From Promethearchaeota archaeon (GTDB taxonomy: Archaea > Asgardarchaeota > Lokiarchaeia > Sigyniarchaeales > SOKP01): a stretch of DNA of 64,000 nt. This document shows positions 4,348 through 8,549 of the stretch, piece by piece (the first letter of the stretch is position 1; each line of letters begins with the position of its first letter). The notes under the pieces are model-generated. The model searched no databases. It saw only the letters and a list, made by a program, of their open reading frames with translations, and was not told the origin of the DNA. Position numbers and translations under genes: made by a program. The stretch lies in the NCBI GenBank assembly GCA_029838195.1, contig JALGVJ010000003.1, positions 128,678 through 192,677 on the forward strand, read 5' to 3'.

Positions 4348-4782
4348 ATGGAAAAGAAGAATCGTGAGCATCTGCTTTTTTTAATAAAAAATTATAATAA
4401 AAAAAAGGAAGAATTTTTTCAGTATCTTGAAAATCATACTAATATCACCAGAAAAGAAATGCTCCTGGAGATCTCGAAAAATATCTTGAAAAATAATGAT
4501 TTATTAGAAAAAATTGGTTTTTCTGAAAAGGAAATCTCTAAAGAATTAGAGAACTTTAAGCACCCTCCCTTATCGGACGATATTATTAATGATTTCATGG
4601 AAAAAATTAAAAAAGATAAATCGAAAAAAGTACTGTATTTAAAAAAATTTCTCGAATTGTTTCAAGAAATTAATGAAAACGATAAGGCAGTTTTGCTTCA
4701 ATCTTTAGAAAAAGAAGAAGATTTAAATAAATTATGTATTAAGATGAAATCATTATTCAATTCTTTCCCGATATCAAGATAA
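4348..4782 (+). CDS. Hypothetical helical protein, divergent from rnc
   Basis: 144-aa K/E-rich ORF, 52 bp from the rnc start. Confidence 0.65.
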   Translation: MEKKNREHLLFLIKNYNKKKEEFFQYLENHTNITRKEMLLEISKNILKNNDLLEKIGFSEKEISKELENFKHPPLSDDIINDFMEKIKKDKSKKVLYLKKFLELFQEINENDKAVLLQSLEKEEDLNKLCIKMKSLFNSFPISR

Positions 4783-4861
4783 AACCAAGAAAATCTCAGC
4801 TTTTATATCTTTTATACTATTTTAAAATTGATTGAAAGTTATTCCTCTTTGGTCGTGCATG

Positions 4862-5257
4862 CTAACCCAACAAGCTAAACAAGTTATTTAATTCCATTAC
4901 GTACTTGGAACCTTTAATCTTGATTTTTCTAGTGATTAATTTCAAGAGCATTTTCAGGGTTGATAATTCTCCAGAAGCCAGTTTAAGGAATAATTCTGTC
5001 GTTGTTTCTAATTTTCCGTCCCATCCTAAAACTTCTTTCTTTAAATTTTCCTTATTATCATTTTTTATGCCCTCAACCTCCACTGTTCCGTTTTTGACCT
5101 TGATCAGAGCAGCATATCTACCATCGGTTGCATTGAGTAAGATCTTTAGGTCAGCATCTTTATATTGTTCCTTGAATTTTTCATTTGTATTTAGGGGTTC
5201 CAAATTTTTAGCAATGACACTAGCAAATCCACGCAGTTTTTTCTTTTTTTCTGCCAT
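4862..5257 (-). CDS. SCP2 sterol/lipid-carrier domain protein
   Basis: IKVKNGTVEV...FLKLASGELS...KIKIKG pattern typical of the SCP2 C-terminus. Confidence 0.7.
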   Translation of the reverse strand: MAEKKKKLRGFASVIAKNLEPLNTNEKFKEQYKDADLKILLNATDGRYAALIKVKNGTVEVEGIKNDNKENLKKEVLGWDGKLETTTELFLKLASGELSTLKMLLKLITRKIKIKGSKYVMELNNLFSLLG

Positions 5258-5582
5258 GGTTTTCTTTCCTCTTAATTTTAATTTTCATTGAATTTAATTT
5301 CATGATTACTTTTGAATTTAATTCAATTTTTTTCCCATTTAAATTTTTCTTTTTCTTTCACAAAAAATTATCTCATGGTTATTTCTCATTATCCTTATCA
5401 TGGATCACTCCTAATGGGTACAAAATTTACAAACGCAAAATTAAATAGAGTCCCATGAATTGCTAATAAAAATTCGTGAAGAATTAACTTAAATTAGAAG
5501 GCTTGTTAATGGATGGGACAAATTGGCTGGAATAAGGTATATTTTATTTTTAATTTTTAAAAAAATTTTTTCCCTCTTATCA

Positions 5583-5589
5583 TTTATAA
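5583..5589 (+). promoter_or_regulatory. Archaeal TATA box for a leaderless transcript
   Basis: TTTATAA ending about 24 nt upstream of ATG 5613. Confidence 0.5.
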
Positions 5590-5612
5590 CTTAAGATTTC
5601 TTGAATTCAATC

Positions 5613-6362
5613 ATGGCAAATCAACATTCCTATAGTTTTTTTGGTCAAAAATCCGCGTTTTTCTTTCAAAGTCCTTCAAAATTCGAAAAATATATCTATT
5701 TTAGGTTCATTAAAAAGAAGAATGATGGGAGTTGGGAAAAACCATCTAAGAAGGAAGGGTTGGTGGTAAAACTTTCTCTCGAGGAGCAAGTCATGATTTT
5801 GGAAGTCTTAAAGAAAAATATCCTTTTATGGACTGGATTTCACACCTACAAGGATACCAAAACGCCCATATCAATTAAATGGGAAAATGCTAAAAAGAAT
5901 CGGTTATGGTTAAATTTTGGTTCTTATGCAAAAATGCTACAAACGCCTGAAATCGAAATATTAAAAATGCTCATGACTCATATATTAGAAGAAAAAATAG
6001 AACATGCAACAAGCCTTATTTCGGGAAAAAAGCCTCGTGAGAAAACGGCAAACAAAAAATCCAACCATGCCGCTATAAAACACGATGCATCTTTTCAGCC
6101 AAAAGAGATGCGAGAAAATCCTTCTCACCAAAAATTACCAGTTTTAATTAAAGAAGAACCGAATAGCGAAGAATATACCACGCTTCGAGCACGAATAAAA
6201 GGTGAAACGGAAAAAGCGCTTCTACTTTTAACAGAGGAGAACATGGAACGGTGGATCCCTAAATCCGCCATTAAATATCCTCTCGATTCGCAAAAAAAAG
6301 ATATACCCCAATCTTTTCTTGTAAGGAATTGGGTATTAAGAAAATACAAAATTCTTTCTTGA
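5613..6362 (+). CDS. Putative Whirly/PC4-fold ssDNA-binding protein with C-terminal ETEKA...WIPKS small beta domain
   Basis: ATG at 5613 preferred over TTG 5601; motif order YSFFGQKSAF / KLSLEE / GFH / L..PEIEIL parallels plant Whirly; C-terminal GETEKALL...WIPKSAI...NWVL. Confidence 0.55.
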   Translation: MANQHSYSFFGQKSAFFFQSPSKFEKYIYFRFIKKKNDGSWEKPSKKEGLVVKLSLEEQVMILEVLKKNILLWTGFHTYKDTKTPISIKWENAKKNRLWLNFGSYAKMLQTPEIEILKMLMTHILEEKIEHATSLISGKKPREKTANKKSNHAAIKHDASFQPKEMRENPSHQKLPVLIKEEPNSEEYTTLRARIKGETEKALLLLTEENMERWIPKSAIKYPLDSQKKDIPQSFLVRNWVLRKYKILS

Positions 6363-6410
6363 GAAAGATGAAAGACATTGTTTTAATAGAAAATGGGGAG
6401 AATCGAAAAA

Positions 6411-6662
6411 TTACCAGCCACTTTCTTCTGAGGTGCCAAAGAATTCCTCATATGCTTTTCTATCTTCCCCTGAAATTTTAGAAATTTTAAGATTTTGTTT
6501 AATGACAACAGGTGCGGCTTCCTTATCATCATGGCGTATTTTTTTAATAATTTTATAATCTTCCGAATTTTTACCCATATCAAATTCCTTATCGCAAGCT
6601 TTACAATAAAGCTTTCCTTTTTTGGGTATTAACAAATTCGAACATTCCGGACAGAACCGCAT
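6411..6662 (-). CDS. TFS/RpoM-like protein with only the N-terminal zinc ribbon
   Basis: MRFCPECSNLLIP...LYCKAC; no C-terminal ribbon or ADE motif; GGAGG SD upstream. Confidence 0.8.
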   Translation of the reverse strand: MRFCPECSNLLIPKKGKLYCKACDKEFDMGKNSEDYKIIKKIRHDDKEAAPVVIKQNLKISKISGEDRKAYEEFFGTSEESGW

Positions 6663-7041
6663 TATTAATCAACCTCCTCGTGATGTTGTTGTATTTTTCT
6701 AATTCTCCTATTTAAAGTTTACGGTATCTTGTTATTTTTAAAAGAACAAAAATATATAAACAAAATCCATTAATAAATTTATTGCTTTTTGAATAAATTC
6801 TTTTCTTGAAAAAATAAAAATTTTTCTTTTTCAATAATTTATCATTCAAAATTTTTTGGGATAGCTTAGAACTTCTTTAGAGCTTTTTCATATATCAGCA
6901 ATTATCAAGAGATTAATACCATGGAGGAAGTTTTAGTACAAATAAGTAATTAATCAAAAAGATATTCATTTAATTTATTCTTTCTTTAGTTTAATTATCG
7001 GTATTAAAGAAATTATTGATTAAAAACAAGGTAAAAGTTTC

Positions 7042-7776
7042 ATGAAATCATCCAAAACATTAATAATTGCTCATCGTGGAGCTTCAAAAATCTGTCCTGA
7101 AAATACTTTAAAAGCCTTTCGAAAAGCCATTGAATTAAAAGCAGATTATATCGAATTTGACGTGCAAAAATCTAAAGATGATGAATTAGTAGTAATTCAT
7201 GATGAAGACACGCTTCGCACCACGGGAGTAAAGGGTTTAATTAATAACATGACACTAAAAGAGATAAAAAAATTAGATGCGGGGGAAGGAGAGCAAATAC
7301 CTACTCTTGAGGAAGTAATAGACTTAACTGCCGGTAAAATCGGTTTAAATTGTGAAATAAAGGTAGCGGGGATTGGTGAACGTGTTGTTGAGGTGTTTAA
7401 AAAAGAAGGTATCTTAGATTCTGTCATGATATCCTCATTCTTACACGATGAATTAATCAAAATAAAAAAAATGGAACGTTCCGTAACAATCGCCTCATTA
7501 GAGCCCTCAGACGGGAACATGCGATTTACTACGGAAACAAAAAAACAAATGGTTCAATTCGTTGAAAAAAACCAATTTCAAGCACTCAATCTCGTATATT
7601 CTTTAGTAGATAAACAACTGGTTCAATGGGCTCATGAAAAAAACATTAAAATCATCCCGTGGACCGTGGATACTAAAATTGGAATGAAACGGCTGTTGAA
7701 ATTAGGGGTGGATGGAATAATAACCAATGATGTTGAACTCTTAAAAGAGGTATTAAGGCAATATAGAAGTACTTAA
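7042..7776 (+). CDS. Glycerophosphodiester phosphodiesterase (GDPD)
   Basis: IAHRGAS..PENTL, IEFDV, HD, EIK, WTVD, GVDGIITN. Confidence 0.95.
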   Translation: MKSSKTLIIAHRGASKICPENTLKAFRKAIELKADYIEFDVQKSKDDELVVIHDEDTLRTTGVKGLINNMTLKEIKKLDAGEGEQIPTLEEVIDLTAGKIGLNCEIKVAGIGERVVEVFKKEGILDSVMISSFLHDELIKIKKMERSVTIASLEPSDGNMRFTTETKKQMVQFVEKNQFQALNLVYSLVDKQLVQWAHEKNIKIIPWTVDTKIGMKRLLKLGVDGIITNDVELLKEVLRQYRST

Positions 7777-7811: not shown

Positions 7812-8549
7812 ATGGAAAATATGCATGTCATGAAACCATTTTTAGTGATTGGTCATAAAGGAGCAAGCAAAACATGCCCTGAAAATACCCTAAAAGCTTT
7901 TAAAAAAGCCATTGAACTCAAGGCAGATTACATTGAATTTGATGTTCATCTTTCCAAGGATAAAAAAATTGTCGTAAGTCATGATCCAGATATTCAAAGA
8001 ATAACGGGACAGCCAGGAATAATAAAAGAAATGACTCTCTCGGAACTAAAACAATTTGATTTTGGAGAAGGAGAACAAATTCCAACTATGGAAGAGGTAA
8101 TCGAGGTTACTAAAGGTAAAATCGGATTACAAGTGGAAATAAAAGCGCGAGGTTTGGAAAAACAATTGGTTTCCATTTTAAAAAGAGAAGGATTGATAGA
8201 AACGACTATTATATCTTGTTTCATTCATTCTAAATTGTTAAAAATTCAAAAATTGGAGCCAAACCTCAAATTGGCTGCTTTAGAACCAGCTATTATTGGA
8301 AGAGATGTTTTACCTAGTGATCATGAAAAAATAGTAGCAAACGCAGTAAAAAATAACTTTTTTGCGATCCACCCTGAATATAGTTTAATAACTGAAGATT
8401 TTATCAAATTATCCCATAAAAATGGACTTCGCGTCCATGCGTGGACCGTGAATGATAAGGAAGTAATGAGAAAATTTGTACGCATGGGAATTGATGGTAT
8501 CATAACTGATGATATTGAAGCTTTAAAGGATGTATTAAATCGAAAATAA
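7812..8549 (+). CDS. Glycerophosphodiester phosphodiesterase (GDPD), tandem paralog
   Basis: GHKGAS..PENTL, IEFDV, WTVN, GIDGIITD; near-identical N-terminus to the upstream gene. Confidence 0.95.
   Translation: MENMHVMKPFLVIGHKGASKTCPENTLKAFKKAIELKADYIEFDVHLSKDKKIVVSHDPDIQRITGQPGIIKEMTLSELKQFDFGEGEQIPTMEEVIEVTKGKIGLQVEIKARGLEKQLVSILKREGLIETTIISCFIHSKLLKIQKLEPNLKLAALEPAIIGRDVLPSDHEKIVANAVKNNFFAIHPEYSLITEDFIKLSHKNGLRVHAWTVNDKEVMRKFVRMGIDGIITDDIEALKDVLNRK

Follow-up and report, generated by a model that had tools for sequence, protein, structure and literature searches.

The stretch of DNA analysed here (the window) is 64,000 nucleotides long and comes from contig JALGVJ010000003.1 of a Promethearchaeota archaeon of the class Lokiarchaeia. 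Its positions 5613-6362 on the plus strand hold an intact open reading frame (ORF), from the ATG at 5613 to the stop codon at 6360-6362, which encodes a protein of 249 residues (P0001), just where an earlier note on this DNA had placed it. We propose that P0001 is probably a binder of single-stranded nucleic acid, either single-stranded DNA (ssDNA) or RNA, a candidate function suggested by its basic N-terminal domain (isoelectric point, pI, 8.5-9.7 across the family) together with the fold predicted for it. The ORF listing gives an alternative TTG start at 5601, and the ATG is judged likelier because members of the family begin with M-x-[DN]-x-H-S in their alignment and a TTTATAA box lies about 27 nt upstream. 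At the locus of the closest orthologue (L008, 53% identity) a TTTA(A/T) box stands at the same distance and the start context is ATCATGGCA, both as in the window, and the recurrence of the box suggests an mRNA that is leaderless or carries a very short leader. The gene is monocistronic, since both flanking genes lie on the opposite strand, and an Rfam scan of positions 4700-7100 gave no match.

P0001 is a member of a well-conserved family that has no name and no Pfam or NCBIfam model. Searches of Pfam, NCBIfam and the PDB sequences, with the single protein and with profiles, returned no significant match for the N-terminal domain (N-domain), and P0001 has no Pfam match at E≤10; weak sequence matches to otoferlin, an encapsulin-associated ferritin-like protein and a secreted effector were dismissed as chance. 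A search of 5.8 billion proteins recovered 165 full-length homologues (E≤1e-46, 39-53% identity), all annotated as hypothetical and all from Asgard metagenome-assembled genomes (MAGs), while 1.84 billion representatives of clusters at 50% identity, searched exhaustively with a profile, yielded 669 family representatives at E≤1e-3, of which 183 reach E≤1e-30. An alignment of 45 members (A1) contains two conserved blocks, residues 1-135 and 190-249, separated by a linker that cannot be aligned. Invariant positions are H5, F9, F10, G11, K36, W41, E42, W73, H77, W90, Y105, K107, H123, E127 and K128 in the first block and K201, A202, L204, W214, P216, K217, S218, Q233, F235 and W240 in the second. 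The N-domain is basic in all 45 members (median pI 9.3). The linker is variable (23-74 residues, pI 4 to 10.5 with a median of 5.2) and often acidic, so that its description as K-rich in the earlier note is apt for the window's copy (pI 9.5) and does not extend to the family.

The N-terminal domain is confidently predicted to have a Whirly/MRP-type fold. An AlphaFold2 (AF2) model built with the 45-sequence alignment has a per-residue confidence (pLDDT) of 89-97 over residues 1-130, and DSSP assigns to it a first repeat of strands 5-10, 14-20, 28-35 and 50-54 followed by helix 56-66, and a second of strands 72-79, 82-92, 97-102 and 105-109 followed by the long helix 111-134. This is the duplicated beta4-alpha topology that the earlier note had anticipated, and the two four-stranded antiparallel sheets of the model, each with its helix, pack as they do in Whirly proteins and have the Whirly-type fold of MRP1 and MRP2. 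When the model was compared with PDB structures by Foldseek, as the same note had proposed, Whirly and MRP chains alone filled the first 18 rows and PUR-alpha came after them; the matches include StWhy2 (3r9z, E 3.6e-4), AtWHY2, PBF-2 and MRP1/2. Structural comparison of the N-domain (Z score, aligned residues and root-mean-square deviation) placed MRP1/2 (2gia; 15.0, 122, 2.9-3.0), AtWHY1 (4koo; 14.9, 141, 4.3), AtWHY2 (4kop; 14.8, 129, 2.9) and StWhy2 (3n1h; 13.9, 131, 3.3) ahead of PUR-alpha (8.6-9.5, 114-116, 4.6-5.4) and SsgA/B (8.3-9.1, 106-116, 3.0-4.2). The same order came out of a second, independent alignment run against all of 48,161 PDB representatives, with a clear gap after the three Whirly/MRP rows. 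Neither the PUR-repeat packing of PUR-alpha (PF04845) nor a sequence match to it was found. In a protein-language-model feature search the ESM-Atlas clusters nearest to the N-domain are viral ones in which 25% and 12% of the members carry PF08536 (scores 0.90-0.92, 201-208 of 256 features), and a shape search of the ESM Atlas returned, besides three Promethearchaeota clusters without a name, a bacterial one in which 17% of the members carry PF08536. In BFVD the best match is to a phage protein that bears the name 'Whirly transcription factor'.

No sequence kinship with the plant proteins is detectable. The earlier note had argued from short motifs, and all the strings that it quoted are present in P0001, namely YSFFGQKSAF (residues 7-16), IYFRFIKK (28-35), VVKLSLEEQVMI (51-62), TGFH (74-77), RLWLNF (96-101), LQTPEIEILKMLM (109-121), ETEKA (198-202) and WIPKS (214-218). 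The plant Whirly strings that it set beside them are likewise genuine: YKGKAAL, LLQFAP..YDW, VFSLSVTEIG, EFFHDP, HFFNL and AEFAVL all occur in an alignment (A4) of 22 plant PF08536 proteins, which were retrieved with a 78-residue bait 99% identical to an Arabidopsis thaliana PF08536 protein. The resemblance between the two sets, as distinct from the strings themselves, does not rise above chance. The PF08536 hidden Markov model (HMM) matches 0/45 family members at E≤1 and 0/400 Asgard genomes at E≤0.01, BLASTP against AtWHY1 found nothing relevant, and hhalign of 49 family N-domains (A3) against A4, both of them narrow profiles (Neff ~2.6) and A4 one of plant Whirly proteins only, gave Prob 0.35% and E 0.17. 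The best local hhalign alignment paired segments of the second repeat roughly as the earlier note had proposed, without significance. The motif parallels follow the common order of secondary-structure elements without statistical support, and it is the predicted structure that carries the claim of a Whirly/MRP-type fold. The segment Y88-K-G-K-A-A-L94, invariant in A4, is replaced in the Loki family by S-F-F-G-Q, in which F9 and G11 are invariant, and only the turn glycine of the hairpin could correspond between the two. We accordingly class P0001 and its relatives as a new family of Whirly/MRP fold and not as part of Pfam Whirly: of the Whirly/PC4-like identity first put forward for it, the fold is supported (AF2, Foldseek) and the Pfam membership is not.

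The Whirly fold is a tetramer-forming one, and it binds single-stranded DNA or RNA in plants, trypanosomes and some phages. A tetramer model, also suggested in the earlier note, was obtained with ESMFold2 from four copies of residues 1-142, and a helix-core tetramer like the whirligig of Whirly, MRP1/2 and ChmC is predicted. Its median ipSAE is 0.73, while the highest of three controls scores 0.00; between runs 74% or more of the contacts recur, and the partner pLDDT is 81 or higher. Among the calibration proteins this mark was reached by 20/30 whose solved structure is a pair of one chain and by 1/23 solved as single chains, and the score may partly reflect memory of solved Whirly tetramers. 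Residues 4-7, helix 56-64 and helix 111-134 of each copy make the contacts with its two neighbours, and these segments hold H5, E58, I62, H123, E127, K128, I129 and T133, which are among the most conserved positions of the family; helix 111-134, with its invariant H123, E127, K128, I129 and T133, is the core of the predicted interface.

The C-terminal module is joined to this domain by the linker. Folded alone it is modelled as a small barrel (strands 188-198, 202-207, 212-216 and 233-238 with a short helix; pLDDT 83.5), which in the model is a generic barrel of the oligonucleotide/oligosaccharide-binding (OB) or SH3-like kind. By profile and motif, the module is homologous to small phage proteins, which bears out the link to phage hypotheticals that the earlier note had drawn. 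The HMM of phrog_8389 matches the module in 45/45 family members (best E 3.8e-10; 1.8e-5 for that of P0001) and phrog_37067 matches 41/45, and stand-alone proteins of 63-75 residues with the motif ETxKA(L/I)L...WIPKS...W are encoded on IMG/VR contigs. A tblastn search of 50,697 phage genomes with the module gave no match, and HMM and pattern searches were needed to find the relatives. The phrog_8389 and phrog_37067 proteins share motif and size with the Loki module, but they stand alone and are annotated without a function, whereas in the Loki family a cellular gene joins the module to a preceding Whirly domain. The neighbours of the stand-alone phage homologues (saccharopine dehydrogenase-like, dATP/dGTP diphosphohydrolase-like, EF-Tu-like and integrase genes) are uninformative. 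Matches of the module to RNase P/MRP p29 (PF01868) and S1 (PF00575) are sub-threshold, a hint at RNA-binding barrels and no proof. The ESM-Atlas clusters nearest to both halves of the protein are viral.

The C-terminal module is dispensable in some family members, as illustrated by forms of 139-148 residues that consist of the domain only, by members with extensions and by the degenerate tail of the third paralog in the window's genome. This paralog (L003 1498-2181, minus strand, contig C89) has an intact Whirly-type domain and a truncated, degenerate barrel, and it is convergent, at a distance of 44 bp, with a gene for a 315-residue OB-fold protein (L003 507-1454, plus strand; PF01336 E 6.6e-5, CDC24_OB3 E 5e-4). 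Two rare members, P0170 (995 residues) and P0252 (361 residues), have long unrelated extensions in place of the barrel; among these two and the likewise rare P0200 and P0183, what comes after the Whirly-type domain is either a long unrelated extension or a very long low-complexity linker of Ser, Gly and Pro that leads to the barrel.

The distribution across Asgard genomes, a point that the earlier note had raised, is concentrated in one Lokiarchaeial family. The N-domain profile matches 146/400 Asgard genomes, although it was built from Loki sequences and very divergent relatives elsewhere could be missed. The taxonomic family of the window's own genome (f1) accounts for 133/134 genomes with a match; within the same order the counts are 1/1 for family f2, 9/14 for f3 and 0/4 for f4, within the same class 2/2 for f6 (weak, E ~1e-16) and 0/5 for f5 and f7, and in the other classes of the phylum 0 of ~240. 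A motif scan of 185,579 species genomes confirmed 199 relatives; the best 80 of these 199 all come from Asgard MAGs, most of them named Promethearchaeota or Promethearchaeia, some labelled Hermod-, Hod-, Odin- or Thorarchaeota and a few only 'uncultured archaeon'. Most positive genomes have two or three copies and the window's genome has three, and by these counts the gene is a core, multi-copy one in its Lokiarchaeial family. A paralog tree, which lacks genome labels and added little, places the window's copy and the third copy of the genome in one clade of six (support 0.99) and the second copy (L002 1498-2226, plus strand) elsewhere. Family members are also found on two IMG/VR contigs, as a domain-only form of 139 residues (L053 3938-4420, 43.9-kb contig) and as the full two-domain form (L054 3992-4777, 225-kb contig); these contigs may be pieces of host genome or may come from Asgard viruses bearing the gene.

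The features of the locus are listed in Table 1. On one side of the gene lie an RNase III gene and two small ORFs without family assignment, on the other an RPB9-type zinc-ribbon gene and two GDPD genes, and the same gene order is found at L008. The place of the RNase III gene beside the Whirly-fold gene is kept there, and bacterial-type RNase III is uncommon in archaea; the zinc-ribbon gene is convergent with the Whirly-fold gene at a distance of 49 bp, again as at L008.

Table 1. Features of the gene and of its surroundings, in positions of the window.
Feature	Position	Strand	Details
Putative archaeal TATA box, TTTATAA	5583-5589	+	about 27 nt 5' of the ATG; read from sequence
Complete ORF, 249 residues and stop	5613-6362	+	member of the Lokiarchaeia-specific family
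N-terminal domain of predicted Whirly/MRP type, residues 1-137	5613-6023	+	
First beta4-alpha repeat, residues 5-66	5625-5810	+	DSSP on AF2 model
Second beta4-alpha repeat, residues 72-134	5826-6014	+	DSSP on AF2 model
Predicted disordered linker, residues 138-187	6024-6173	+	pLDDT <50 at residues 146-182
Predicted C-terminal small beta-barrel, residues 188-249	6174-6359	+	conserved motif ETxKALL...WIPKS...Q.F...W
RNase III-domain protein, 242 residues	3567-4295	-	PF00636 E 6.5e-17; PF14622 E 1.7e-16
Small ORF, 144 residues, no family	4348-4782	+	order and length conserved at L008
Small ORF, 131 residues, no family	4862-5257	-	order and length conserved at L008
RPB9/TFS-type N-terminal zinc ribbon, 83 residues	6411-6662	-	PF02150 E 6.3e-7; no second ribbon
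Tandem paralogous GDPD (glycerophosphodiester phosphodiesterase) genes	7042-7776, 7812-8549	+	tandem at L008 too

When neighbouring ORFs were clustered at 45 loci sampled from many genomes, at least three further syntenic groups of paralogs appeared. The paralogs of one group stand head-to-head with an Antibiotic_NAT-like acetyltransferase gene. In another, a gene for a CoiA_nuc-like nuclease takes the head-to-head position (16/45 loci) and a histone-deacetylase-family gene is convergent with the paralog. In the third, the head-to-head neighbour encodes an RPA32-like protein of OB and RPA_C domains (8/45 loci), and a site-2 protease gene follows the paralog. These counts are inflated by shared ancestry, and the neighbours do not form operons. 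The RPA32-like protein, an OB fold with an RPA_C winged helix, is encoded at L011 3943-4692 (minus strand), with equivalents at L035, L038, L042, L044, L047, L049 and L050, and behind its gene stands a run of eIF-2 beta, DUF424, NMD3, RIO1 and KH/PNO1-like genes. By their neighbours, some paralogs incline towards DNA metabolism and the window's copy towards RNA. An operon-based inference was rejected, the gene being monocistronic and its context varying among the paralog groups.

Comparison with characterised proteins of this fold brings out what sets the Loki family apart. With the plant Whirly proteins (StWhy1/PBF-2 p24, StWhy2 and AtWHY1-3; PF08536) it shares no detectable sequence similarity; it has an archaeal host, lacks YKGKAAL and an organellar targeting peptide, and has in addition a C-terminal phage-type barrel on a disordered linker. 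MRP1 and MRP2 are guide-RNA-binding proteins of kinetoplastids that form a 2:2 hetero-tetramer of two paralogs. Their sequence identity to the Loki protein is about 11%, and no Pfam MRP match and no PDB sequence match was found; they serve mitochondrial RNA editing, a process with no known archaeal counterpart. ChmC of the chimalliviruses (gp61 of jumbo phage PhiPA3) has a Whirly fold with a disordered tail and is a homotetramer that binds ssRNA (58 nM) and ssDNA (184 nM; PMC11077065). Compared by its description only, it is built of beta3-alpha repeats, has an N/G-rich tail without a folded C-terminal barrel and is tied to the phage nucleus, whereas the Loki gene is cellular. PUR-alpha and bacterial Pur-alpha, with PC4-like type I/II domains, share the same PC4-like superfold of beta4-alpha repeats (PMC7549692).

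The reading that we favour, and hold to be probable with some reserve, is that of a cellular, vertically inherited Lokiarchaeial protein that forms a tetramer of the Whirly/MRP type and binds single-stranded nucleic acid. Several points weigh against it. Nucleic-acid binding and the cellular role are what we infer, and the tetramer is a prediction from a job unlike those of the calibration, with four copies and its own alignment. The ssDNA-binding motif of the plant proteins, YKGKAAL, is not conserved, FFGQ standing at the first hairpin of the family, and sequence and profile searches connected the family to no characterised protein of the Whirly, MRP or PUR kind. The genomic context is weak because the neighbourhoods differ between the paralog groups and none forms an operon. 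Finally, structure matches show the same general fold in SsgA/B, which act in cell division, and in type VII secretion chaperones. These last are precedents for a Whirly-like fold used as a protein-protein scaffold or chaperone rather than as a nucleic-acid binder, SsgA/SsgB recruiting the division machinery and LcpA-type proteins serving type VII secretion; however, they fall some 6 Z units short of MRP1/2 and Whirly in match strength, the domain is basic throughout the family (pI 8.5-9.7), two of the paralog groups adjoin a nuclease and an RPA-like protein, and the oligomer predicted here is a tetramer like that of Whirly, so that we consider a scaffold or chaperone unlikely.

In structure the family matches eukaryotic Whirly and MRP proteins best, and it has an Asgard host, which might make it an archaeal counterpart or ancestor of eukaryotic Whirly (or of MRP or PUR), that is, a eukaryotic signature protein from Asgard archaea. 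We judge this very unlikely, given the hhalign result against the 22 plant proteins, the absence of PF08536 from all 400 Asgard genomes and a distribution limited to f1, f3, f2 and, weakly, f6, with the family in no other sampled Asgard genome. Since the Whirly fold also occurs in phages and bacteria, spread by viruses or ancient divergence would explain the likeness equally well. The relation to the eukaryotic family raised in the earlier note hence finds no support as a special vertical link, the Loki family being confined to one Asgard class. The phage homology of the C-terminal module, the viral ESM-Atlas clusters nearest to both halves and the two IMG/VR contigs would fit yet another origin, a recent acquisition from a virus or mobile element, for example of a viral ssDNA/RNA-binding or anti-defence protein. 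However, the gene is near-universal in its host family with synteny that is stable across genera, no recurrent mobile-element gene family stands beside the sampled loci, no integrase or mobile-element gene was seen in its neighbourhood in the window, and the N-domain family occurs on 2 of 2.9 million viral contigs, possibly host fragments; a recent acquisition is in our estimate barely credible.

If the protein is the single-strand binder that we favour, four copies would assemble through helices 56-66 and 111-134 into a whirligig-like tetramer, whose basic beta-sheet blades would bind ssDNA and/or RNA without strict sequence specificity, in a mode analogous to that of plant Whirly, trypanosome MRP1/2 and phage ChmC. 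The flexible linker would tether four small phage-type beta-barrels to the tetramer, and each barrel might provide a second, weak nucleic-acid contact or recruit a partner. The two or three paralogs per genome would probably divide DNA maintenance and RNA handling between them, or else co-assemble. A bolder version, distinctly unlikely when all its parts are taken together, would have Lokiarchaeia hold multi-paralog hetero-tetramers of the Whirly type, like MRP1/MRP2, that act as strand-annealing 'matchmakers' or as protectors of single strands. The paralogs linked to the CoiA nuclease and to RPA32 would then work beside RPA in recombination and repair, the window's RNase III-linked paralog would act in RNA processing, the phage-type barrel would be the docking module of the system, and a virus-borne ancestor would perhaps be common to the Loki lineage and to the eukaryotic organellar Whirly and MRP proteins. 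If true, it would give Archaea their first nucleic-acid chaperone system of the Whirly type.

Single-strand binders of the Whirly and PC4-like kinds have been described in eukaryotes, bacteria and phages. Full-text literature searches found no description of an Asgard, Lokiarchaeial or other archaeal Whirly-type protein, in line with the earlier note, which had called the factor undescribed. The main review of the PC4-like superfamily never mentions archaea (PMC7549692), and an earlier survey reported PC4 and PUR-alpha to be absent from them (PMC3575825). Claims on the origin of eukaryotes are to be tempered, because the distribution is restricted and there is no sequence kinship with plant Whirly. 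A Whirly domain joined through a linker to a phage-type barrel is a new architecture, and the family would fill the archaeal gap among the Whirly/PC4-like single-strand binders, as a candidate genome-maintenance or RNA-chaperone factor for the Asgard lineage that includes the cultured Lokiarchaeia.
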